This document shows positions 3,039 to 17,901 of a stretch of 64,000 nt of DNA, piece after piece. The notes below the pieces were generated by a model, which was not told where the DNA came from, did not search any database, and saw only the letters and a program-made list of their open reading frames with translations. A program made the translations under genes and the position numbers. The stretch spans positions 198,637-262,636 of the forward strand of contig CAYPEN010000001.1 of assembly GCA_964409875.1 (NCBI GenBank). The letters are read 5' to 3'. Numbering within the stretch: the first letter of the stretch is position 1; each line of letters opens with the position of its first letter. The DNA is from an uncultured Gammaproteobacteria bacterium. GTDB lineage: Bacteria; Patescibacteriota; Microgenomatia; Levybacterales; GWA1-39-11.

Positions 3039-3677
3039 ATGTATAATCATTTTATGCTCGTTTTTATCGATGATTCCGGAGATCCGGGATTTAAATTAGA
3101 AAAAGGTTCCTCAACTCACTTTGTAATATCTTGCATAATTTTTGATGACGATTTGGAAGCAGAAAAAACATCTTTAGCTATTAAAGAACTCAGAAGAAAA
3201 TTAAAAGTTAATGATCGATATGAATTTAAATTTAATAAAACTGATTTACGTTTTAAAAAAGTTTTTTTTGATACGATTTTTCCCTTCAAATTTAGAGTAA
3301 GGGCTATTACGGTTGATAAAACAATAATTCATAGCTCTCGTCTAAGAAATTACAAAGAAAATTTTTATAACTACATCATCATGCAGGTTTTGAAGCAAAG
3401 TAAAGGACATATCAAAAATGCAAGATTAAAATTCGATAAAAGAGGAGAAAAAACATTGAGAGATGAGTTAAGAGTATATTTAAGTCGTGAACTTGATAAT
3501 AGAAGAAATCATATTTTCAGCGATGTAAGATTTGTTGATTCTAGACAGAATACTTTAATTCAACTAGCCGATATGGTTGCCGGCTGTATAACGTCTTTTT
3601 CTAAAGGCAAAGATAGGATTTTCTATAAACAATTAAAGGATAACGGTAGAGTAGAGGATGTCTGGCAGTTTAAATAA
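3039..3677 (+). CDS. DUF3800 family protein
   Basis: N-terminal FIDDSGDPGF motif and ~210 aa length are characteristic of DUF3800. A start at MLVFIDD (3054) is possible. Confidence 0.6.
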   Translation: MYNHFMLVFIDDSGDPGFKLEKGSSTHFVISCIIFDDDLEAEKTSLAIKELRRKLKVNDRYEFKFNKTDLRFKKVFFDTIFPFKFRVRAITVDKTIIHSSRLRNYKENFYNYIIMQVLKQSKGHIKNARLKFDKRGEKTLRDELRVYLSRELDNRRNHIFSDVRFVDSRQNTLIQLADMVAGCITSFSKGKDRIFYKQLKDNGRVEDVWQFK

Positions 3678-3968
3678 TTCGACCCTGCTTTCTATCCAAA
3701 CGTAAGTTTGGAACGCGCACCATACGGTGACAATTCGAAAACAGGGTCTTTGTAAAATTATTATTACATATTGAGAAGTTCTTGTCAATTTCCCCAGCCT
3801 CAAAAAAATTCGCAAAAAACCTCGCTTTCAGGTGCAAGAAGCACTTTGTAATTGTCGTTTTCTCAAGAATTTGAGAATAGAAAGGTGTAACTGAAGGTTG
3901 TCCATGGGTGGTGCCCGCCCCCGGATAGATCCGAGGGCGGACTGGAAGACGGCTGGGAGACGGGAAAC

Positions 3969-7077: not shown

Positions 7078-7524
7078 ATGCTTCCAATGAGTAAGACGCT
7101 CAAAAAACGATTCAAATTTCCCCAGGTTTTGAGTTTTGCCATGAGAGTTATCAAAAGAATTCCTCGCGTAGCGTGGGGAACGGCTGCTGTTTTTGGAGTT
7201 TTTTGCTTGGGCATTATATTTGGGTCCATTTCCCAAAGTGGATATATCAACGAGCAAGCTTCGCAAAAGCAGGGAGAGAAGAGTGCCCAGCTGACGGATG
7301 TCCTCAACAATTATCAAGGACTCTCAAAACTTTTTTACCTGCAGCAGCAAGATATGGATATCATAACCGACACATCTCAATGGTCTACAAATCCCCAAGA
7401 ACTAACTGATGCAATATCAAGCTACAAGCAAAAGAAAAACGAAATCCTTTTCCAATGGGGAAGGCTCTACGAGCTTCGCAGAAAAGCCGGATTGCCAAGC
7501 GACCCGAATTTGAAAGCAGAATAG
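7078..7524 (+). CDS. hypothetical membrane protein
   Basis: One TM segment (AAVFGVFCLGIIFGSI) and a Q-rich region. The true start may be a downstream Met. Confidence 0.4.
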   Translation: MLPMSKTLKKRFKFPQVLSFAMRVIKRIPRVAWGTAAVFGVFCLGIIFGSISQSGYINEQASQKQGEKSAQLTDVLNNYQGLSKLFYLQQQDMDIITDTSQWSTNPQELTDAISSYKQKKNEILFQWGRLYELRRKAGLPSDPNLKAE

Positions 7525-7533
7525 GAACGCATT

Positions 7534-7737
7534 ATGGATAATTTCTTTGGAAATAAAAAACAAAAGGTAGTATGGGCGGTATATGTCGTTCTTGCTGCAA
7601 TAATCTTTATTGGAATAACGACCGACTATTCGTGTTCTGTCGCCAATAAATGCGGACAGCTGATCCCAATCCTTTTCTCCCTGACCCTAATATTTACGGT
7701 CCTATCTTTACTATTCAAATCCTCAAAAAAAAGCTAA
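7534..7737 (+). CDS. small hydrophobic membrane protein (67 aa)
   Basis: Two TM-like segments. Low confidence because of size. Confidence 0.35.
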   Translation: MDNFFGNKKQKVVWAVYVVLAAIIFIGITTDYSCSVANKCGQLIPILFSLTLIFTVLSLLFKSSKKS

Positions 7738-7797
7738 ATTCTGTCGCTACGCTCAAAAAACCTCGCTTTCACGCTCAAAAAGTGGTAGAATTACTTT

Positions 7798-9252
7798 ATG
7801 TTCGAGCAAGCTTTTAAAAATATTGATGATGTTTTGTGGAAAGATTCTGGGGTTTCTAATGAGCTTGATTATGTAGAGCAAACTTCATGGATTCTTTTTC
7901 TAAAATATCTTGATGATTTAGAGGAGACGAAGGAAAAGGAGTCAAAACTTGCCGGAAGATCTTACAAATCAATACTTGAAGACAAATATAAATGGGATAC
8001 ATGGGCTGCGCCAAAAGACTCTAGTGGAAAAATAGATCACCGAATAGCTCTTTCTGGGGAAGATCTCACCGATTTCGTAAATTTAGAATTATTTCCATAT
8101 CTTAAAAAATTTAAGGCAGATGCTAAAAGTCCAGACTCCATTGAATATAAAATAGGTGAGATTTTTAGCGAGTTAAAAAATAAAATTCATAGCGGATATA
8201 CCCTTCGTGAAATATTAAATATCGTAGAGACCCTTCATTTCAGGTCACAAAAAGAAAAGCATGAGCTATCTCATCTATATGAATCAAAAATCAAAAACAT
8301 GGGCAATGCGGGGAGAAATGGGGGGGAGTATTACACACCGCGCCCTCTAATACGAGCTATTGTCAAAGTTGTAAATCCAAAGATAGGAGAGACGGTCTAT
8401 GACGGAGCTGTAGGATCGGCGGGATTTTTGTGTGAGGCATTTGAATACTTAAAAGAAAGCAAGCAACTTTCTACAGAAGATGTAGAAATTCTGCAGAAAA
8501 AAACATTTTATGGGAAGGAGAAAAAGTCTCTTGCTTACATAATAGGTGTAATGAACATGATTCTTCATGGAATAGAAGCTCCAAACATTAAGCACACTAA
8601 TACACTTTCAGAAAATATAATGGATTTTCAGGAAAAAGACCGTTTCAACGTAGTGCTTGCCAATCCGCCTTTTGGTGGTAAGGAACGTTCCGAAGTGCAA
8701 CAAAACTTCCCGATAAAAACAGGCGAAACCGCTTCACTCTTTTTGCAGCACTTTATTAAAATTTTGAAAGCAGGTGGCAAGGCAGGTGTAGTAATTAAAA
8801 ACACTTTTTTGAGCAATACCGACAATGCCACGGTTGCCATACGCAAAACCTTATTGGAAAACTGCAACCTGCACACCGTGTTGGATTTGCCGGGTGGCGC
8901 TTTTACGGGTGCTGGGGTAAAAACAGTCATACTGCTTTTTGAGAAAGGCAAATCGACCCAGAAGGTTTGGTATTACCAGTTGAACCCTGGCCGCAATTTA
9001 GGCAAGACCAATCCATTGAATGATAAAGACTTGGCAGAGTTTGTAGAATTACAAAAAACCTTTGCTGACAGCAAAAATTCTTGGACGGTGAATGTAAAAG
9101 ACATTGACCAAAACACTTTTGATTTGAGTGTAAAAAACCCGAATAAAAAAGAAGAAGTTACGTTACGCCAACCGAAAGATATTGTGGAAGAAATGAAAGC
9201 ATTGGACGAAGAAAATACGAAAATCATAAACTTAATTTTGGAATTGATATGA
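7798..9252 (+). CDS. hsdM: type I restriction-modification methyltransferase subunit HsdM
   Basis: Carries the VLANPPFGG catalytic motif and the AdoMet motif DGAVGSAGFL. Its stop overlaps the hsdS start (ATGA at 9249-9252). Confidence 0.9.
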   Translation: MFEQAFKNIDDVLWKDSGVSNELDYVEQTSWILFLKYLDDLEETKEKESKLAGRSYKSILEDKYKWDTWAAPKDSSGKIDHRIALSGEDLTDFVNLELFPYLKKFKADAKSPDSIEYKIGEIFSELKNKIHSGYTLREILNIVETLHFRSQKEKHELSHLYESKIKNMGNAGRNGGEYYTPRPLIRAIVKVVNPKIGETVYDGAVGSAGFLCEAFEYLKESKQLSTEDVEILQKKTFYGKEKKSLAYIIGVMNMILHGIEAPNIKHTNTLSENIMDFQEKDRFNVVLANPPFGGKERSEVQQNFPIKTGETASLFLQHFIKILKAGGKAGVVIKNTFLSNTDNATVAIRKTLLENCNLHTVLDLPGGAFTGAGVKTVILLFEKGKSTQKVWYYQLNPGRNLGKTNPLNDKDLAEFVELQKTFADSKNSWTVNVKDIDQNTFDLSVKNPNKKEEVTLRQPKDIVEEMKALDEENTKIINLILELI

Positions 9253-10367
9253 AGCAAGGTTGGGAAATAAAGAAGTTGGGTGAAGTTTCAGAAATTCTGA
9301 ATGGTGGAACACCGAAAACAAATATTGCAGAATATTGGGACGATGATATTCATTGGATTACCCCTGCTGATTTAGGAAAGTTAACTAAACCAACAGTAGC
9401 AGATACTCCAAGAAAAATTTCAAGTTTAGGCTTAGAAAAATCGTCTGCAAAATTATTTCCTGAAAATTCAGTAATACTTTCAACGAGAGCTCCAATTGGA
9501 CATTTGGCAATCAATGTAGTTCCTATGAGCACTAATCAAGGGTGTCGTGGAATTGTGCCAAGTAAAAAACTTGATACTTGGTATTTATATTACTTCCTTA
9601 AAAAGAATGTAGAGTTACTTGATAGTTTGGGAACAGGAGCAACCTTTAAAGAGCTTTCAACAAAAGCACTTTCAGGGGTTGAGATCCCCCTTCCCCCTCT
9701 CCCCGAACAACAACGCATTGTTTCTATATTAGATGAAGCCTTTGCCGCCATCACATCGGCAAAAGCAAATGTACAAAAAAACCTCAACAACGCCAAAGAA
9801 CTTTTTGAAAGCTACTTGCAGGGAGTGTTTGAGAATAAGGGTGATGGTTGGGAAGAGAAAAGATTTGATGAAGTCTGTGTTTTGCAAAGGGGATTTGACC
9901 TACCAACTCATTCAAGATTTGAAGGAGATTATCCTTTGGTAAGTTCTAATGGAATTACAGACAATATAAATCAATGGAAAGTTAAAGCGCCAGGTGTTGT
10001 TACAGGTCGTTCAGGCACAATTGGCAATGTTCATTTTATTGAGGAAGATTTTTGGCCACTCAACACAGCACTTTTCATTAAAGATTTTCACGGAAATGAT
10101 GAACGCTTTATTTATTATTTCTTAACGTCTTTTGATTTGAGTAGATATAGCTCAGGAGCAGGTGTACCGACTTTAAATAGAAATAATGTTCACAGCGTAA
10201 GAGTTTGTGTTCCAAAATCAAAAGAAGAACAACAAATCATTGTCAGTCAATTAGATGCCCTGCGAGCGGAAACACAAAAGTTGGAAGCGGTATATCAAAA
10301 GAAAATAGCTGATTTGGAAGAACTGAAAAAATCCATTTTACATAAAGCATTTTCTGGAGAATTATAA
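9249..10367 (+). CDS. hsdS: type I restriction-modification specificity subunit HsdS
   Basis: Conserved central HsdS region (…LPPLPEQQRIVSILDEAFAAI…) and C-terminal coiled-coil (…QKKIADLEELKKSILHKAFSGEL). Sits between hsdM and hsdR. Confidence 0.85.
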   Translation: MKQGWEIKKLGEVSEILNGGTPKTNIAEYWDDDIHWITPADLGKLTKPTVADTPRKISSLGLEKSSAKLFPENSVILSTRAPIGHLAINVVPMSTNQGCRGIVPSKKLDTWYLYYFLKKNVELLDSLGTGATFKELSTKALSGVEIPLPPLPEQQRIVSILDEAFAAITSAKANVQKNLNNAKELFESYLQGVFENKGDGWEEKRFDEVCVLQRGFDLPTHSRFEGDYPLVSSNGITDNINQWKVKAPGVVTGRSGTIGNVHFIEEDFWPLNTALFIKDFHGNDERFIYYFLTSFDLSRYSSGAGVPTLNRNNVHSVRVCVPKSKEEQQIIVSQLDALRAETQKLEAVYQKKIADLEELKKSILHKAFSGEL

Positions 10368-10369
10368 GG

Positions 10370-10425
10370 TTTGTATACATTCATTGACTAAATGTATACA
10401 AACTGGTATACTTTGTATACATTCA
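10370..10425 (+). promoter_or_regulatory. promoter with triple TGTATACA-palindrome operator upstream of fic/hsdR
   Basis: TTGACT (10384-10389), a 17-nt spacer, then TATACT (10407-10412). Three copies of TTTGTATACATTCA (direct, inverted, direct) overlap the -35 to +1 region. Confidence 0.45.
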
Positions 10426-10445
10426 CAAAAAGATGTAAACAAACT

Positions 10446-11585
10446 ATGGATATCAACATTGGAACACTGAAAGAACAAAAAGAGGGGTTTAAGGCTTTTA
10501 TTCCATATACATTTCCTCCCGAAAAAGGTTTTGAATTTACTCCAAGAATAATTAAAAAAGATAATGAAGCGACACGACTTTTAGGTAAGCTTGATGGTAT
10601 CACCAAGTTATTACCTGATGCTGATTTCTTCTTGCTCATGTATCTGCGCAAAGATGCTGCTTCTTCAAGTCAAATAGAGGGAACTATGGCTACCATGGTA
10701 GATGCGATTGAGGCAGAGGTAAACGTAAGCACTAATATCCCGGAGGATGTAGATGACATTTTGCATTACATACAAGCATTAAATTACGGTATAAAACGCG
10801 TTACTTCTGATGATTTTCCAATAAATCTTCGATTTGTTAGAGAACTTCACTTGAAACTTATGAAAGGCGCGCGCGCTACTCATTTTAGTGATCCTGGGGA
10901 ATTTAGAAAAAGTCAGAACTGGATTCAAGGAACAAGGCCCGACAATGCACATTTTGTGCCTCCTCCGGTTGATGAAATGCATCGTGCGCTGAATGAGTTA
11001 GAGGCCTTTATACATGCTGAAGACACAACTCCAACTGTTATTAAAGCGGGGATTATTCATTCACAGTTTGAAACGATTCATCCTTTTCTTGATGGGAATG
11101 GAAGAACAGGTAGAATGTTGCTAACATTTTATCTTTGGAAGGAAGGATATTTAGAAAAGCCAGTACTTTTCTTATCATCTTACTTTAAAAAGCATCAAAA
11201 GCTTTATTACGAGAGGCTTGAAGGATACCATGAGGGCAAAATTGATAAATGGGTGGAATTTTTTCTCGATGGAGTTATTGAGATTGCAACTGAGGCAATC
11301 GGCATAGTTGATAAGATTACTGAATTAAGAGAGCGAGATATTTTAAAAATTCAGAGACTAGGTAAAAGGGCCTCTGAAAGCGCGGCTATGATACTGCCTA
11401 AGTTATATGGGCAACCAATCGTGAATGTCTCGACAGTGCGTGACTGGACAGGATTTACTAGAGCTGGTGCGCAACAGGTTATTGACCGTTTTATCGAAAT
11501 GGGAATACTTTCTCCAAAGGATAAGGATGTGAAGTATGGACAGTCATATATCTATAATGAATATATTCAAATATTTTCAAATTAG
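10446..11585 (+). CDS. fic: Fic family protein (AMPylation/Fido domain)
   Basis: Canonical Fic motif HPFLDGNGRTGR. Start chosen at MDINIG, downstream of the promoter. It is embedded between hsdS and hsdR. Confidence 0.85.
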   Translation: MDINIGTLKEQKEGFKAFIPYTFPPEKGFEFTPRIIKKDNEATRLLGKLDGITKLLPDADFFLLMYLRKDAASSSQIEGTMATMVDAIEAEVNVSTNIPEDVDDILHYIQALNYGIKRVTSDDFPINLRFVRELHLKLMKGARATHFSDPGEFRKSQNWIQGTRPDNAHFVPPPVDEMHRALNELEAFIHAEDTTPTVIKAGIIHSQFETIHPFLDGNGRTGRMLLTFYLWKEGYLEKPVLFLSSYFKKHQKLYYERLEGYHEGKIDKWVEFFLDGVIEIATEAIGIVDKITELRERDILKIQRLGKRASESAAMILPKLYGQPIVNVSTVRDWTGFTRAGAQQVIDRFIEMGILSPKDKDVKYGQSYIYNEYIQIFSN

Positions 11586-11587
11586 CT

Positions 11588-13897
11588 ATGAATGAATCAG
11601 AGACAAGAGCAGAATATATAGATCCAAAATTAAAGGAAAGCGGTTGGGGAGAGGTAGAGGGATCAAAAGTATTGCGAGAACACAGAATTACTGATGGAAG
11701 AATTCTCGTTGGTGGAGCACGCTCGAAGCCCGAAATCGCGGATTATGTTCTCGTGTATAAAAATCAAAAACTAGCCGTCATTGAAGCAAAGCAAATAGAT
11801 CTACCAGCAACGGAAGGTGTAGCGCAGGCAAAAGCATACGCTCATAAGATGCAACTTGAATATACCTATTCCACAAACGGTAAAGAAATTTACGAGATGA
11901 ACATGAAGACAGGGAAGGAATGGTATCTTGAGCGTTTTCCTACTCCTGATGAGTTATGGAATGCTTATTACTTTGACCAAAATGACTGGAAAGAAAAGTT
12001 TGCATCAATTCCAAGCGAAGGCGAATTAGGGAGAAGATATTATCAAGAAACAGCGATTAAAAATGTGCTTGATGCTATTGCGGAAGAAAAAAATAGAGTA
12101 CTTCTTACAATGGCAACCGGAACAGGTAAAACTGCCGTAGCCTTTCAAATAGCTTGGAAACTATATCAAGCTAGATGGAATTTGCAAAGAGACGGAAATC
12201 GTAGGCCAAGAATTTTGTTTTTGGCTGATAGAAATATACTAGCCGATCAAGCATTTAATGCTTTTAGTGCGTTTTCAGAAGATGCATTAGTAAGAATAAA
12301 TCCTCTCGATATCAGGAAGAAGGGATCAGTCCCAACGAATGGAGCAGTGTTCTTTACGATATTTCAAACTTTTATGAGCGGACCTCAAAACACACCTTAT
12401 TTTGGTGAGTATCCACCTGATTTTTTTGATTTCATCATCATAGATGAATGTCATAGGGGAGGAGCAAATGATGAGGGCAACTGGAGAGGAATTTTGGAGT
12501 ACTTTTCACCCGCTGTGCAGCTTGGGCTTACAGCTACTCCGAAAAGAAAAGATAATGTCGATACTTATAGATATTTTGGAGAGCCTGTTTATACATATTC
12601 ACTAAAAGAAGGAATAGGTGATGGATTTCTGACACCATTTAAGGTTAAAAGGATTCAAACAACTCTTGATGAATACATATATACATCGGATGACGAGGTG
12701 GTAGAGGGGGAGATAGAAATGGGCAAGGTCTATACCGAGCCAGATTTTAATAGAATAATCGAGATAAAAGAGAGGGAGGCTAAAAGAGTCAAATTGATGT
12801 TAGAAAATATAAATCAAACAGAAAAAACTATAGTCTTTTGTGCCAATCAAGAGCATGCGTTAGCAGTCAGAGATCTTATAAATCAAATGAATGATGTGAA
12901 GGATCCATTTTATTGTGTAAGGGTTACTGCAAATGATGGGTTTCGAGGTGAGCAATATTTGAGAGAATTTCAGGATAACGAAAAAACTATTCCAACTATT
13001 CTAACTACTTCTCAAAAACTTTCCACTGGTGTTGATGCGAGAAATATCCGAAATATTGTTCTTATGCGACCAATTAATAATATGATTGAATTCAAACAAA
13101 TAATTGGACGGGGCACAAGGCTATTTGACGGTAAAGAATATTTTACTATTATTGATTTTGTAGATGCTTATAAAAATTTTCTTGACCCTGAATGGGACGG
13201 AGAACCTGTTGATCCTGAACCTCCCAGACCTCCTGGTCCTACACCGCTACCACCTAGGCCATGTCCGGTTTGTGGGCAAGCTCCATGTATCTGTGACAAA
13301 GTAGAACCAAAACAGAAAATTAAAATAAAACTTCGTGACGGAAAAGAGCGCGAAATTCAACACATGATTTCCACGTCTTATTGGGGAGCTGATGGTAAGC
13401 CTATGTCTTCAGAAGAATTTATTTACAATTTGTACGGAATATTACCTGACTTTTTTAAAGATGAAGAAGAATTGAGGAAAATATGGTCAAATCCAACAAC
13501 ACGAAGTAAGTTTCTCGAGCGATTTTTTGATATGGGAATTGATATTGAGCAAATCGAAAACCTTTCAAAAATTGTAAGCGGTGAGGATAGTGATTTTTAT
13601 GATGTCTTGCTATTTTTAGCCTACCATAAACCATTAATTACCCGTAAAAAACGAGTTGAAAAAAATAAAAGCGAGATTTTGGAAGGGTTAAATGAAAATG
13701 AGTCAGAATTCCTTAATTTTGTGTTGAGAAAATATGAAGATGATGGGTTTGAGGAACTATCTGAAGAAAAATTGCCAGTTCTTCTAAACTTAAAATATCA
13801 AGCTATTGCGGATGCAGAACAAAAATTGGGAGATGTAGAAAAAATAAGAAATACTTTTTTTGAATTTCAAAAAAAATTATATTCAAACATTCAATAG
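11588..13897 (+). CDS. hsdR: type I restriction enzyme R subunit HsdR
   Basis: HSDR_N-like N-terminus (…RAEYIDPKLKESGW…), Walker A MATGTGKT, and DEAD-like IIIDECHRG. The C-terminal EcoEI_R_C-like helical region is preceded by a Pro-rich linker and a CPVCGQAPCIC zinc-knuckle-like motif. Confidence 0.85.
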   Translation: MNESETRAEYIDPKLKESGWGEVEGSKVLREHRITDGRILVGGARSKPEIADYVLVYKNQKLAVIEAKQIDLPATEGVAQAKAYAHKMQLEYTYSTNGKEIYEMNMKTGKEWYLERFPTPDELWNAYYFDQNDWKEKFASIPSEGELGRRYYQETAIKNVLDAIAEEKNRVLLTMATGTGKTAVAFQIAWKLYQARWNLQRDGNRRPRILFLADRNILADQAFNAFSAFSEDALVRINPLDIRKKGSVPTNGAVFFTIFQTFMSGPQNTPYFGEYPPDFFDFIIIDECHRGGANDEGNWRGILEYFSPAVQLGLTATPKRKDNVDTYRYFGEPVYTYSLKEGIGDGFLTPFKVKRIQTTLDEYIYTSDDEVVEGEIEMGKVYTEPDFNRIIEIKEREAKRVKLMLENINQTEKTIVFCANQEHALAVRDLINQMNDVKDPFYCVRVTANDGFRGEQYLREFQDNEKTIPTILTTSQKLSTGVDARNIRNIVLMRPINNMIEFKQIIGRGTRLFDGKEYFTIIDFVDAYKNFLDPEWDGEPVDPEPPRPPGPTPLPPRPCPVCGQAPCICDKVEPKQKIKIKLRDGKEREIQHMISTSYWGADGKPMSSEEFIYNLYGILPDFFKDEEELRKIWSNPTTRSKFLERFFDMGIDIEQIENLSKIVSGEDSDFYDVLLFLAYHKPLITRKKRVEKNKSEILEGLNENESEFLNFVLRKYEDDGFEELSEEKLPVLLNLKYQAIADAEQKLGDVEKIRNTFFEFQKKLYSNIQ

Positions 13898-13971
13898 CCC
13901 TACTATACTAAAATGGTGTGGAATTGGCCTCAATTGCTTTTGTTTTGTACCAGTAGTATACTTCACCTCAA

Positions 13972-14898
13972 ATGGCGTTGTTTAGAATAAATGGGAAAAA
14001 ATTAAGCCCTGTAAAGGAAATGGGGTTTGATTCTCAATTTAAAAAAGAGAAGGAACTCCAAAATTTTACAGAAAACAATCTTCAAGAACTTTTTGGTCTT
14101 GAATATATTGCTACTGAATTTAATATCGAGACTTTTTGGCTTGACTCTCTGGCATTTGATCCTGCTATCAATTCATTTGTAATCATAGAGTACAAAAAAG
14201 TCGAAAATTTCTCGCTTATGGATCAGGGGCAAACGTATTTGAATCTTGTGTTGGATCACAAGGCTGACGTTTTGCTGGAATATATTACAAAAACAGGAAA
14301 GACAATTGATAAAAAGAGTGTCGATTGGGGACAGACCAGAGTCATGTTCATTGGTCCAAAATTTAATACCTATCAAAAGAGAGCGTTAAGTCCAAATTTA
14401 CCATTTGAATTGTGGGAAGTTGGAATTTATGAGGGGGGACTTATAGAATATGATCAGATAATTCCCGTGGGTGGAGACAAAAAAGTTGAAAAGAGAACTG
14501 TTTCTCTTTCTGGTTCTGCGAGTAAGGAAATTAAAGTATATGCAGTAGAGGATCATCTAAAAAAATCCAACCAGAAAACACAAGATCTTTTTCAGACTAT
14601 CAGAGAGGAAATTTTTTCTTTGAATAGCAAAATTCAGGAAAAACCAGTTGGGAACTACATAGGTTATAAAGTAAATTGGTATAATTTTGCCTCGATCCAT
14701 TTTTACAAAGATTGGTTAAAAATTCATGTTAGAAAGGAAAAGTTGCAAAGTGATAAGGATGGTAGACTGACAAAAATACCCTCATCATATGGATGGGGTA
14801 AAACGCCGCTTTGGTGGATGGATGTTAAAAATGAAAAGGATGTGGAGTATGTATTACCAATAATTAAGGAGTCCTATGATGCATCGCCTGATAAGTAA
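13972..14898 (+). CDS. PD-(D/E)XK-like nuclease-fold protein with uncharacterised C-terminal domain (putative)
   Basis: N-terminal …FDPAINSFVIIEYKK… fits a D…(D/E)xK restriction-endonuclease-like signature. It lies immediately downstream of hsdR on the same strand. Confidence 0.4.
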   Translation: MALFRINGKKLSPVKEMGFDSQFKKEKELQNFTENNLQELFGLEYIATEFNIETFWLDSLAFDPAINSFVIIEYKKVENFSLMDQGQTYLNLVLDHKADVLLEYITKTGKTIDKKSVDWGQTRVMFIGPKFNTYQKRALSPNLPFELWEVGIYEGGLIEYDQIIPVGGDKKVEKRTVSLSGSASKEIKVYAVEDHLKKSNQKTQDLFQTIREEIFSLNSKIQEKPVGNYIGYKVNWYNFASIHFYKDWLKIHVRKEKLQSDKDGRLTKIPSSYGWGKTPLWWMDVKNEKDVEYVLPIIKESYDASPDK

Positions 14899-14904
14899 AT
14901 AAAT

Positions 14905-15663
14905 ATGTCTCAGTACTATAATCCCATCAGAACACGGAATTTGTTTGATCCCAGCTCTTCCGAGCCGTTTCGACTGAGCCGTTCAAAAATCGACCTTTTT
15001 GTAAAGTGTCCCAGGTGCTTTTATATGGATAGGAGGTTGGGAATAGGGCAGCCGCCAGGATATCCTTTTTCTTTAAATTCTGCAGTCGATGCACTTCTCA
15101 AAAAAGAGTTTGATATGCACCGCGCAAACGGCACGCGGCATCCATTGTGTGAAAAGTATGGAATCAACGCAATTCCCTATGCTCACGAGAAAATTGATGA
15201 GTGGAGAGACTCGTTACGACGGGGAATTACTGTCCCAATTGACGGCACTTCGGTAGTTGTAACAGGAGGAGTAGATGACGTTTGGCATGAAAATGGCGAG
15301 CTTATTATCGTTGATTACAAAGCAACGTCAAAAAAAGAAGAAGTAACACTGGATGCAGAGTGGCAAGATGGGTACAAAAGGCAGATGGAAATCTATCAGT
15401 GGCTGTTCCGAAAGAATGGTTTTAACGTTTCTAAAACAGGATATTTTGTGTACTGTAATGGAGACACCGATAAAGAGGCTTTTGATGGGAAGCTGGAGTT
15501 TGAAATAAAACTAATTCCCTATGTTGGTGATGACTCATGGGTCGAGGGAAAAATTTTGGAAGCAATCGAATATCTAAAAAGTGATACCATCCCTGAGAGC
15601 GGGGCGGATTGTGACTTTTGCGCGTATAGAAAAGCCGCGGCAAGTGCAGAATCCAGGGAGTAG
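14905..15663 (+). CDS. Cas4-like / RecB-family PD-(D/E)XK nuclease with Fe-S cysteine motifs
   Basis: N-terminal CPRC. RecB motifs GGVDDVW and IIVDYKATSKK. QxxxY motif QMEIYQWLF. C-terminal CDFC, giving a 4-Cys cluster. It starts 6 nt after the upstream gene. Confidence 0.6.
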   Translation: MSQYYNPIRTRNLFDPSSSEPFRLSRSKIDLFVKCPRCFYMDRRLGIGQPPGYPFSLNSAVDALLKKEFDMHRANGTRHPLCEKYGINAIPYAHEKIDEWRDSLRRGITVPIDGTSVVVTGGVDDVWHENGELIIVDYKATSKKEEVTLDAEWQDGYKRQMEIYQWLFRKNGFNVSKTGYFVYCNGDTDKEAFDGKLEFEIKLIPYVGDDSWVEGKILEAIEYLKSDTIPESGADCDFCAYRKAAASAESRE

Positions 15664-15808
15664 TAACGGGACTGGTCCGCAAATTCCAAATTTCTCTACC
15701 AAAATCCTTTGATTGAGGTAACTATTGCGTCGGATTATTTTTCAATATAAAAGTTGTGGGTGGGAAAATGCCCCCCGGAGCCTTGCGGCTCCGGGGGGCG
15801 AATGCGCC

Positions 15809-16171
15809 TTACTGGCGCGACGTCTGGGTCCTGCTTTCGGACCTTTTCCTCGCTAGCCATTCGGCTATCTGCTCACCTGTGAACGTGAAGCCCGCGTCGT
15901 GCGGGAATCCGGCGATGACCTCCTCTTTGAAATACCGCACATACGGATACAGTTGATCCCTAAGTACATCTGGATTCACACCCGGTGCAAGACCGAGGTG
16001 ATCGCAGAGGATTGAAAGTGCCAGGGCGTAAGGCCCGGCTCCTCCATATCCCCACTCGAACCCGTTATCCGGGTCGCCGTACTGGTCGTAGTTGAAGAGT
16101 TTTTGGCCATTGACCTTGACTTCATCAACCCAGGCACCGTCGCGGGTGCCCACGTAAATCTTACCGGACAA
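15809..16171 (-). CDS. hypothetical protein in GC-rich island (TTG start)
   Basis: 120-aa ORF with AGGAG 6 nt upstream of a TTG start. GC content is far above genome background (island ~15750-16180). Confidence 0.45.
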   Translation of the reverse strand: MSGKIYVGTRDGAWVDEVKVNGQKLFNYDQYGDPDNGFEWGYGGAGPYALALSILCDHLGLAPGVNPDVLRDQLYPYVRYFKEEVIAGFPHDAGFTFTGEQIAEWLARKRSESRTQTSRQ

Positions 16172-16291
16172 GCTACACTCCTAAGTCAGATAGGGAGGAT
16201 TATAGCAAATGCTAGGTTCAAAATCAAACTATAAGATAAAATTTACCCATGCGGGAGAGTCGGCTAGCATGTTTAAATAGGAAAATTCGGG

Positions 16292-16370
16292 CGCGCTTCC
16301 TTGAACTGTAAATCCAATCACACAGAATGCCATGTTTAAAATTTAAAAGCACAAATTCTGAAAATGGCAA
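16292..16370. repeat. direct repeat copy 1 (~78 bp) flanking the Doc/antitoxin cassette
   Basis: cgcgcttccttgaactgtaaatccaatcacacagaatgccatgtttaaaatttaaaag… recurs at 17419-17498 with ~5 mismatches. Confidence 0.8.
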
Positions 16371-16398
16371 GTACACACTAACAATCGACGGTACGAAG

Positions 16399-16782
16399 TT
16401 ATGCAGGTTTTGTGTGGGATTTGAGCCATGAAGAAATTTCCTCCAGAGATAGATTTCGATTATCAACATTTATGGCAAACTCCACCTCTTCATCATGAGA
16501 ATTTATAAGTTGATATCCATTTATTTTGAGAAAAATTCCGGCAGAGGTAAGTGCTGTCCTTTTATTCCCATCAACAAACGGGTGGTTTTTTAGAAGAGAT
16601 TGAAGAAGAGCTGCAGCTTTGGAGAAAATATCAGGATACATTTCTTGCCCGTCATATGTAGTCTGAGGTCTAGCCACAGCCGATTCCAAAAGTCCTAAAT
16701 CTCTCAACCCATGAGAACCTCCAAATTTTTTTATCATCTGGTCATGAATAGCTAAAATTTGGTGAGGAGTAAGGTATTTCAA
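16399..16782 (-). CDS. doc: Doc (death-on-curing) toxin, Fic/Doc family
   Basis: Doc-type motif HPFVDGNKRTAL. 127 aa. Its start overlaps the upstream antitoxin stop. Confidence 0.85.
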   Translation of the reverse strand: MKYLTPHQILAIHDQMIKKFGGSHGLRDLGLLESAVARPQTTYDGQEMYPDIFSKAAALLQSLLKNHPFVDGNKRTALTSAGIFLKINGYQLINSHDEEVEFAINVDNRNLSLEEISSWLKSHTKPA

Positions 16783-17015
16783 CGGTTGGAAAGAGCTTGT
16801 AAAACATCTTTGTGCTCTTCTACAAACTCATCAACCATTTTCATGAATTTTGCGTCGACTCCTGAGTCTTTTGATGCTTGTGGCGTGATGGTGATTTTCT
16901 TGTTTTTTTCTTCCACGATAACTTTATCTCCAGGCTTGATACCTGCAGATGCAAGAACTTTTTGAGGTATGATAATCCCTTGTGAATTTCCAATTTTTAT
17001 AACTGTCTGTTCCAT
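16779..17015 (-). CDS. AbrB/MazE/SpoVT-type antitoxin (Phd-like partner of Doc)
   Basis: …VIKIGNSQGIIIPQKVLASAGIKPGDKVIV… is a swapped-hairpin AbrB/MazE fold signature. 78 aa, in an overlapping operon with doc. Confidence 0.75.
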   Translation of the reverse strand: MEQTVIKIGNSQGIIIPQKVLASAGIKPGDKVIVEEKNKKITITPQASKDSGVDAKFMKMVDEFVEEHKDVLQALSNR

Positions 17016-17418
17016 GTTATTACATGTTATAACGTATTTGTGGCAATGTCAAGGTTTTGTTGGAGCTGAAACTATATTTTCAAAAGCTCTGATGTTGTTA
17101 ATACTTTCCTATCGGTGAAAGTATTCAAAGCCTCTGCCAAATTCTATTTCTTGATACTTTTGTATCGCCAAAAGTATCCAAAAACTCTTTGCTATGCTGT
17201 TCTTTTCTGCCGAAAAAAGAACCAAAAACTCTCGTCGAGGAGCAGTCTTGAACGTTCGGTTTTTCCTTCATTCACTCAAAATACCGGACTTCGCCTTTCT
17301 ATTTTGCCCGTAAAGCGGTCGTTCATTCAGTCAAAATCTCAAGTTCAGACCTGCAATCGACGAATAAAAAAAGGGAACTTTGCAGATTCTGAAAATGGCA
17401 ACCTGAAGCAAATTTTAA

Positions 17419-17498
17419 CGCGCTTCCTTGAACTGTAAATCCAATCGCACAGAATGCCATGTTTAAAATTTAAAAGTGCAGATTCTGAAAAGGGCAAA
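17419..17498. repeat. direct repeat copy 2 (~78 bp) flanking the Doc/antitoxin cassette
   Basis: Matches 16292-16370. A partial extra copy of the repeat end (cagattctgaaaatggcaa) lies just upstream at 17381-17401. Confidence 0.8.
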
Positions 17499-17568
17499 TT
17501 CATGAGAGGCGCGTTGTCTTGAACAGTAAATTTAGCGCGTCAAGTTGTGTGTTATAATCTGTGGCATT

Positions 17569-17901
17569 ATGGTTTCACGTATTGAAATCCGTCCTGAAGG
17601 GTGTGATTGGACTTTTGAGCGGGGAATCATGGCCGGCGAATCATGTGGAATTTCAAATCCCTTGATGGATGGAGGAGAGGAGTTAATTGTTGTAATCTGT
17701 GATGAAAATGATTTGACAACTACCGTAACCCGTCTTTTTGAGGATGAATTTTTTGAAGATAGTAAAACGGGTGAAATTTGCTTTGAAAAAGATCCTGTTG
17801 CAGTGCTTAAATTAGGCGACCCTCATTACATCACCTCTATCCAGTCTCAATTAAACTCGGACAAAATCGGCCTTCGTATTTCCCACCAAAATGTTTTCTA
17901 G
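17569..17901 (+). CDS. hypothetical protein
   Basis: ORF 17545-17901. Start chosen at MVSRIE. No motif recognised. Confidence 0.35.
   Translation: MVSRIEIRPEGCDWTFERGIMAGESCGISNPLMDGGEELIVVICDENDLTTTVTRLFEDEFFEDSKTGEICFEKDPVAVLKLGDPHYITSIQSQLNSDKIGLRISHQNVF

Follow-up and report, generated by a model that had tools for sequence, protein, structure and literature searches.

Does a toxin-antitoxin (TA) operon that is bracketed by two nearly identical direct repeats represent a mobile cassette, or do the repeats belong to the site in which the operon lies? This question is raised by a 64-kb stretch of contig CAYPEN010000001.1 (positions 198,637 to 262,636; hereafter the window, W, with coordinates counted from its first nucleotide), in which a Doc toxin gene and an AbrB/MazE-type antitoxin gene lie between copy A (16283-16375) and copy B (17410-17502) of a 93-nt direct repeat. 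A preliminary description of this DNA read the repeats as att-like and the operon as an insertion or a mobilisable cassette. Based on a comparison with two related haplotypes, we suggest a different model, to which we assign a probability of roughly 60%. In this model, the TA unit lies in a hypervariable slot of a lineage-specific scaffold of repeat modules, and the contents of this slot would be exchanged or deleted by recombination among the modules or between strains sharing the scaffold.

Results

The direct repeat is modular

Copies A and B are 88% identical over 93 nt (repeat search and blastn self-comparison, E = 1e-25) and share a 79-nt core (16292-16370 and 17419-17497) with 5 mismatches, in agreement with the near-identical repeats of ~78 bp and 5 mismatches that had been reported to flank the operon. 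The core mismatches are A>G in three cases and C>T and T>G in one case each, and the core includes exact blocks of 29 and 28 nt. The interval between the copies holds the Doc toxin gene, the antitoxin gene and ~400 bp of non-coding DNA. Full copies occur twice in the window and not at all in shuffled sequences, and each half of the unit is likewise found exactly twice. Because three independent assemblies (SRR11845619, SRR11845633 and SRR11845634) reproduce the layout of the region at 100% identity, this layout is no assembly artefact.

Read on the minus strand, the repeat unit consists of a tail of ~21 nt that begins with TTGCCATTTTCAGAAT, a 37-nt mid section and a head of ~24 nt (TTTACAGTTCAAGGAAGCGCG), to which a module referred to as the Z flank is added. 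In copy A, which is located between the Doc stop codon and the promoter of a DUF6166 gene, the tail (16372-16346) is followed by the mid section, the head (16317-16284) and the Z flank (16245-16290, of which 16267-16290 reads CCCGAATTTTCCTATTTAAACATGC on the minus strand). Copy B has the same orientation and module order, and over the mid section and head 58 of 59 positions match between the two copies. Two partial modules lie next to copy B. The first is a partial tail, t' (17377-17402), with a 17-nt linker between it and the head of copy B; it corresponds to the partial repeat end that had been placed at 17381-17401. The second, overlooked in the preliminary description, is a partial head, h' (17505-17534), 10 nt past the tail of copy B. 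Together, h', 10 nt, copy B, 17 nt and t' make up a short tandem array that repeats every 91-96 nt. This array is too degenerate for Tandem Repeats Finder, which did not report it, and was seen only by blastn and profile search.

The repeat itself has no sign of a structured element. Neither copy folds significantly on either strand (z-scores from -1.3 to +1.4), no internal or terminal inverted repeat was found in the unit, and Rfam contains no match to it. A small conserved open reading frame (ORF) was rejected, since a frame open in both A and B is broken by a stop codon in a copy from a related genome (spacer S1, below) and the tblastx frames are inconsistent. Exact-pattern scans with 19-21-mers gave chance matches without extended similarity in one genome per species (GCGYTKYCTTGAACWGTAAAT) and in JGI metagenomes (CTTGAACTGTAAATCCAATC), while viral contigs had no match to the head and one chance 20-mer match to the tail. 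Plasmid and phage collections gave no match.

Related haplotypes share the scaffold and differ in the slot

Relatives that carry the repeat were found via the neighbouring DUF6166 gene and not via DNA scans for the repeat. The first relative, retrieved as L014, L018 and L032, is the same sequence in each case, i.e. GCA_041910135.1 and JGI contig Ga0172278_1017. Over the DUF6166 block (W 15617-16244), it is 94.7% identical to the window, and upstream of DUF6166 it has other genes. Heads are present in three of its spacers and tails in two, beside different genes but in the same orientation throughout. Spacer S1, between the ChrA and GNAT genes, contains mid section and head, linker, tail, a segment termed X and a hairpin unit, and matches W 17464-17130 at 70% identity (E = 1e-35). 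Spacer S3, between a DUF6166 paralogue and a 123-aa gene, contains a head that continues into the same Z flank as in copy A (88% identity over W 16267-16317), followed by a hairpin unit at the end of the 123-aa gene. Spacer S6, 7 kb away between the DUF5674 gene and a 67-aa gene, contains a head, a Z-like sequence, a tail and, after 10 nt, another head. All module copies in this relative fall within 9.3 kb.

Taken together, three heads in the 64 kb of this genome and four in 24 kb of the relative give a total of seven, with five tails in the two genomes. All heads and tails are co-oriented, at head-tail distances that range from 10 to 37 nt. In support of the preliminary description, the repeats are not scattered through the window: a search for further copies found none in its 64 kb beyond 16.2-17.6 kb. 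Modules were found in the three spacers of the relative. The preliminary description had held that a generic intergenic repeat, dispersed without regard to insertions, would refute its view, and the modules in the third spacer, 7 kb off, would appear to go some way in that direction.

Copy A has its counterpart in S3 and copy B in S1. Since the heads of copies A and B each have a counterpart of their own in L032, both head positions predate the TA unit. Between the two heads, L032 has genes for a GNAT acetyltransferase and the DUF6166 paralogue and no TA genes. No decayed tail and mid section is detectable before the S3 head in L032, and identity between the window and L032 falls from 95-97% to at most 77% at the head/Z boundary of copy A near 16290.

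A third haplotype, L034, is a 1060-bp contig from SRR11914004. In the direction of DUF6166, it consists of one head, linker, one tail, X and two hairpin units (84% identity to W 17439-17147), followed by 54 nt and then the DUF6166 promoter and gene (94% identity to W 16252-15740). Directly behind the hairpin unit, these 54 nt contain what is left of the 3' end of the 123-aa gene. L034 lacks the TA operon, copy A and the Z flank. The junction of head, linker and tail is therefore kept in S1 and in L034, and the scaffold of head, linker, tail, X and hairpin is present in all three haplotypes, with E = 1e-35 between the window and L032 and E = 1e-104 between the window and L034.

The slot between the hairpin units and the upstream end of the DUF6166 promoter, which forms one of its edges, differs in each haplotype. 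In the window, it is 894 bp long and holds hairpin H1, the TA operon, a Y segment, copy A and the Z flank; in L032, it is 1.83 kb long with the GNAT gene, the DUF6166 paralogue, head and Z flank, hairpin and the 123-aa gene; and in L034, it has shrunk to 54 bp. The junction in L034 fits a presumed deletion by recombination between repeated hairpin units: from ~17 nt past one hairpin unit, its sequence continues as it does behind another hairpin unit in L032.

These haplotypes bear directly on the proposed insertion. W 17147-17439, i.e. ~300 bp between copies A and B that comprise the linker, t', X and hairpins, are present in both L032 (70%) and L034 (84%). Because these ~300 bp occur in both TA-less haplotypes, the A-B interval is not one inserted element. 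Thus, the search for an empty site had a divided outcome: the TA-less L034 does have a single head and a single tail, but ~300 bp of the A-B interval are still there. Of the att-like reading, the variability among close relatives of the DNA that holds the TA operon is supported; that copies A and B are products of insertion in the manner of attL and attR is not.

More distant relatives carry none of the modules (L015-L017 and L025-L031). In L015-L017 and L025-L030, ~70 nt of the DUF6166 promoter and the terminator are kept, and L031 matches just downstream of DUF6166 only.

Hairpin units and segment X

Three tandem hairpin units (17091-17137, 17144-17190 and 17196-17235, minus strand), each with the header AGAGnyTTTGr and then a 9-bp stem, border on segment X. 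The preliminary description had correctly recognized tandem hairpins here but counted two, at 17101-17177, instead of three in 17091-17235. This block folds far better than shuffled sequences (z = -5.0), and compensatory changes affect 5 of the 9 stem pairs. Outside the window, there is one copy each in S1 and S3 of L032 (8019-8077 and 9441-9496) and two in L034 (about 376-493). The unit is 47 nt long with an AT-rich stem, and in the relative single copies lie at the 3' ends of unrelated genes. It has no U-tract; the same genomes have canonical GC-rich terminators with T-runs, e.g. downstream of DUF6166. A genome-wide hairpin similar to repetitive extragenic palindromic (REP) sequences was rejected, as a search of 124 kb of sequence with a covariance model gave no additional ones.

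Segment X (17236-17380, ~150 nt) is non-coding and conserved, with 70% identity to S1 of L032 (7862-8010) and 84% to L034 (229-385), and is kept in the three haplotypes beside different cargo. Neither a conserved ORF nor a significant fold was found in it, and it is without a match in Rfam.

The TA operon is a unit of its own

The Doc toxin of the Fic/Doc family (127 aa; 16399-16782, minus strand; PF02661, E = 5.6e-22) has the motif HPFVDGNKR, which fits the Doc-type HxFx(D/N)(A/G)NKR. The antitoxin has an AbrB/MazE fold (78 aa; 16779-17015, minus strand; PF04014, E = 1.9e-11), and the stop codon of its gene overlaps the start of the toxin gene by 4 nt. The promoter and probable operator (17016-17065, minus strand) consist of a -35 TTGACA (17052-17047) and a -10 TAACAT (17029-17024) at a spacing of 17 in a consensus scan. 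The palindrome noticed earlier at the antitoxin promoter around 17016-17040 is real: GTTATAAC at 17026-17033 overlaps the -10 and is a probable operator of the TA genes. Based on the genes, the pair would be an ordinary member of the Doc type II family.

At the antitoxin gene as well as at a divergent 110-aa ORF, the ATG follows the -10 box after 8-9 nt and lacks a Shine-Dalgarno sequence (17013-17029 and 17554-17571). This suggests that both mRNAs may be leaderless; a leaderless TA mRNA is probable because the ATG comes 8 nt after the -10. L018 keeps the same close arrangement at its TA homologue.

The gene pair is also found in L018-L021. In L032/L018, the homologue is 8 kb away and matches from promoter to stop only (W 17065-16408) at 77% identity, with an 18-nt sequence, GTTATAACATGTAATAAC, that is identical in this otherwise only 77% identical locus. 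In three further contigs, the homologues match W 17058-16421 only. The TA promoter (17065) is thus the upstream limit of homology with other TA loci, and in none of four other contexts does the non-coding DNA that flanks the operon in the window lie next to a TA homologue. No flanking direct repeats were found at the L018 homologue, the only one searched for them. Because the TA genes are 77% identical while DUF6166 is 95% identical, the TA loci of the window and the relative are not positional orthologues. The Doc/AbrB-MazE operon would be a self-contained unit of ~0.66 kb from promoter to stop (W 17065-16399), and the idea of a TA cassette carrying its own repeats finds no support, since the homologues share the stretch from promoter to stop only and the L018 locus lacks flanking direct repeats.

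In the relative, the Doc/antitoxin homologue directly follows a second TA-like pair, DUF433 and DUF5615 (L032 1384-2643; L018 5125-6384), with which it forms a small TA cluster.

The repeat lacks the features of known mobile-element sites

An integrase island with attL and attR was rejected, since the interval DNA is kept at TA-less sites, the only genes in the interval are the two TA genes and the window has no tRNA or tmRNA genes. For an integron cassette, we looked for R'' (RYYYAAC) and R' (GTTRRRY) boxes of attC sites 50-140 nt apart and found none on either strand of 16172-16398 and 17016-17568; with no hairpin-forming imperfect palindrome and no IntI among the 49 ORFs of the window, this class was also rejected. 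The absence of attC boxes, of dyad symmetry, of a significant fold and of an Rfam match likewise speaks against a structured RNA or attC identity of the repeat. The best dyads of the 11-6-11 type of dif sites have 5-6 matches, which is no better than in shuffled sequences (125/300 and 281/300 as good), and no Xer protein was identified in the window. A miniature inverted-repeat transposable element (MITE) or an element of the insertion sequence type would have terminal inverted repeats, which are missing here, and a duplication of 79-93 nt is far beyond a target-site duplication. Finally, a template/variable repeat pair of a diversity-generating retroelement (DGR) was rejected, as no reverse transcriptase was found in the window, neither copy lies in a coding region and the mismatches are not specific to adenines. 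In sum, the repeat fails the tested defining features of attC sites, dif/pdif sites, integrase att sites, MITEs and DGR pairs. What it does have is the defining property of mosaic intergenic repeats, i.e. modular units in several spacers beside unrelated genes in two genomes.

Neighbouring genes and the surrounding island

On one side, the slot is anchored by the conserved DUF6166 gene (15809-16171, minus strand) and its proximal promoter (16172-16244, minus strand; TTGATT-17-TATAAT with a TG extension), which is 97% identical to L032 and 78% identical to distant relatives. On the other side, the 110-aa ORF (17569-17901, plus strand), which has no family match, starts just past h'. A 215-aa neighbour on the right is unusable for synteny because it is almost an ORFan.

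The region from 1 to 17 kb is a defence island with DUF3800, a type II methylase and a MutH-like nuclease, a type I restriction-modification (RM) system, DUF5655 (PDC-S18), a Cas4-like PD-(D/E)XK nuclease and DUF6166, while the right half of the window has housekeeping genes. Compared with the relative, this island is mosaic. No integrase, other recombinase, transposase or reverse transcriptase is encoded by the 49 ORFs scanned in the window. All named homologues of DUF6166 and Doc carry the annotation Candidatus Levybacteria, so that the host is probably a bacterium of the candidate phyla radiation (CPR). Look-ups of the exact proteins of Doc, the 110-aa ORF and PD-(D/E)XK retrieved three identical contigs only.

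Several further observations concern the island. The type I RM operon contains, between hsdS and hsdR, a SoFic-type Fic gene (10392-11585; PADLOC SoFic, E = 2e-104). Directly after the DUF3800 gene (3039-3677, plus strand) comes a DUF3800-IX RNA motif (Rfam RF02968, 64 bits; 3677-3748, minus strand), an association that is already known. The relative lacks the block of type I RM, DUF5655 and PD-(D/E)XK (window 7733-15616) and has unrelated small genes instead; the last 47 nt of the PD-(D/E)XK gene remain (L032 10488-10534 versus window 15617-15663). The region of a 148-aa gene (window 7086-7732) occurs twice in the relative, at 88% and 82% identity. In several relatives, DUF6166, the Cas4-like PD-(D/E)XK gene and DUF5655 (PADLOC PDC-S18, E = 5e-83) are clustered at 65-80% amino-acid identity (window 13972-16244; L015 10001-12555; L025 6396-9508). 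This cluster may constitute a multi-gene defence system.

Discussion

Based on these comparisons, we suggest a model in which copies A and B would be units of a lineage-specific modular non-coding repeat made up of head, tail, Z flank and the 47-nt hairpin unit. Upstream of DUF6166, the modules would be joined into short, degenerate arrays. This site is the edge of a defence/TA island in a bacterium with a small genome that is probably Levybacteria-like and a member of the CPR. The contents of the slot would be swapped or lost via recombination between modules, whether homologous, by gene conversion or illegitimate, and there would be no integrase-mediated insertion that duplicates an att site. 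We infer module recombination as the mechanism from the comparison of the three haplotypes. The near-identity of copies A and B, together with the lack of a counterpart of tail and mid section at S3, points to recent copying or conversion in this lineage. Moreover, because exact blocks of 28 and 29 nt are common to both copies, RecA-type homologous recombination between A and B could delete the TA operon.

Several points weigh against this model. It rests on three haplotypes, one of which is a 1-kb contig, and because these are related by descent, they are not three independent observations. The copy counts come from 64 kb of the genome studied here and from 24 kb of its relative. The near-identity of mid section and head in A and B, and the lack of a counterpart of the copy A tail and mid section at the matching spot in L032, make it possible that a recent duplication was tied to the arrival of the TA operon. 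The co-orientation of all heads and tails and the sharp end of similarity at the head are also expected of recombination sites. Finally, because the order of head-Z and S3-type hairpin differs, no single event yields the window from either relative.

An unlikely alternative is that the repeats are cis-regulatory DNA of the divergent DUF6166 and 110-aa genes, e.g. promoter modules or binding-site arrays, with repeat similarity kept by selection and the position of the TA operon being incidental. The geometry is suggestive, since each copy lies on the 5' side of a gene: copy A at 112-204 nt from DUF6166, and copy B at 67-159 nt from the 110-aa gene. A consensus scan also places a sigma-70-like site inside copy B. 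Moreover, the DUF6166 paralogues are 89% identical at the nucleotide level in the proximal promoter and 48% identical at the amino-acid level in the coding region. However, the promoter-like site of copy B is not kept in copy A, the distant relatives manage with ~70 nt of proximal promoter and no modules, the modules of L032 lie beside unrelated genes as well as at gene 3' ends, and no regulator or binding motif was identified.

An improbable alternative is the course of events proposed in the preliminary description, in which a circle carrying the TA operon and one repeat would have integrated by a single homologous or site-specific crossover into a chromosomal copy, giving rise to A and B. 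It would account for how little A and B differ (5 mismatches in 79 nt), the absence of the tail and mid section of copy A at the matching site in the relative, and the one head, one tail and missing TA operon of L034. In light of L032 and L034, this model appears weakened: the ~300 bp in both TA-less haplotypes argue that the interval did not arrive as one unit, and the head and Z flank of copy A as well as the head, linker and tail of copy B are each matched in L032 and predate the TA operon. Further arguments against it are that TA homologues elsewhere lack the flanking DNA of the window, that the L018 homologue lacks flanking direct repeats, and that no integrase is present among the ORFs scanned in the window.

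Doubtful to a still higher degree is the possibility that heads and tails are recombination sites for a recombinase encoded elsewhere, such that the TA operon, the GNAT gene and the 123-aa gene move as cassettes at head-tail junctions, in functional analogy to integron attC arrays or Xer-dependent dif modules. The motifs are short and conserved, similarity between copies ends sharply, and all seven heads and five tails are co-oriented. In addition, cargo-free head-tail junctions exist (h' and the tail of copy B in the window, S1 and S6 in L032, and L034), the cargo varies by strain, and both integron arrays and dif modules commonly carry TA cassettes (PMC13108822, PMC6449649). By contrast, no recombinase of any family is encoded among the 49 ORFs of the window, the attC R''/R' consensus is absent, dyad symmetry is at the level of shuffled sequences and there is no significant fold. 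The head-tail spacing is variable, the slot boundaries in L034 and L032 are at hairpin units and the DUF6166 promoter rather than at head-tail junctions, and the exact 19-21-mers of the motif were absent from reference genomes, JGI metagenomes and viral contigs apart from chance matches. The most specific form of this idea, in which heads and tails are sites of an undescribed CPR gene-cassette system that shuffles small defence and TA genes at the island edge by a recombinase acting in trans, would work like attC arrays or Xer-dif modules while being unrelated to them in sequence and structure, and we regard it as very improbable. Motifs that proved to be true recombination sites would make this a new cassette-exchange system, which the evidence at hand does not favor.

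Under the slot model, the locus provides a worked, small-scale case in which a TA operon is bracketed by direct repeats without being a mobile cassette, because the repeats are part of the site. It is a warning not to take every repeat-flanked TA operon for att-like. At the same time, it documents, in a poorly known CPR/Levybacteria-like group, a lineage-specific modular intergenic repeat with a covarying hairpin unit and a hypervariable slot beside the conserved DUF6166, PD-(D/E)XK and DUF5655 (PDC-S18) cluster. As a whole, the arrangement is ordinary biology of modest curiosity value.

How does this arrangement compare with known systems? Chromosomal integron arrays carry TA cassettes (PMC13108822) and can be recognized together with clusters of attC sites lacking an integrase, or CALINs, by IntegronFinder (PMC4889954). 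Like them, the locus described here combines a TA operon under its own promoter with similar, co-oriented repeats on either side, within a variable array that is poor in genes; unlike them, it lacks the attC consensus, a hairpin-forming imperfect palindrome and IntI. Likewise, the Xer-dependent dif modules of Acinetobacter plasmids and integrative mobile elements exploiting Xer (IMEX) are small modules, often with TA genes, that are bounded by short sites and have no recombinase of their own (PMC6449649, PMC13141974). The window, too, has a small TA module bounded by short sites and without its own recombinase; however, these sites are direct repeats of ~80 nt without an 11-6-11 dyad, their location is chromosomal and no Xer protein accompanies them in the window.

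The TA genes share with type II Doc systems the Fic/Doc fold, the kinase-type HxFx(D/N)(A/G)NKR motif, the overlapping upstream antitoxin gene and the promoter palindrome. Among type II Doc toxin systems, Phd/Doc of phage P1 is an example, and Doc toxins are also paired with AbrB/MazE-fold antitoxins. Compared with Phd/Doc, the predicted antitoxin here has a SpoVT/AbrB fold and not a Phd/YefM fold, and the host is probably a CPR bacterium.

The clusters of REP sequences in Escherichia coli, known as bacterial interspersed mosaic elements (BIMEs), and the pneumococcal BOX elements are short non-coding modules that vary in order and number in intergenic spacers, are often located at gene ends and in some cases form hairpins. 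In the same way, head, tail, Z flank and hairpin units are variably combined in spacers here. The family described here differs from BIME, REP and BOX elements in that it was seen in one variable island only (64 kb plus 24 kb of the relative), in that it is co-oriented and in that it is unrelated in sequence to the families described in Rfam. In hot spots and defence islands, homologous recombination replaces strain-variable content between conserved anchors. This role would fall here to the DUF6166 promoter on one side and the scaffold of head, tail, X and hairpin on the other, with RM systems, SoFic, PDC-S18 and a Cas4-like nuclease as neighbours; unlike in such hot spots, the slot is small (0.05-1.8 kb) and the anchors are non-coding repeats and not core genes. 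Thus, judged by analogy, the repeat appears to behave most like mosaic intergenic repeats of the BIME/BOX kind combined with the anchors of defence-island hot spots.

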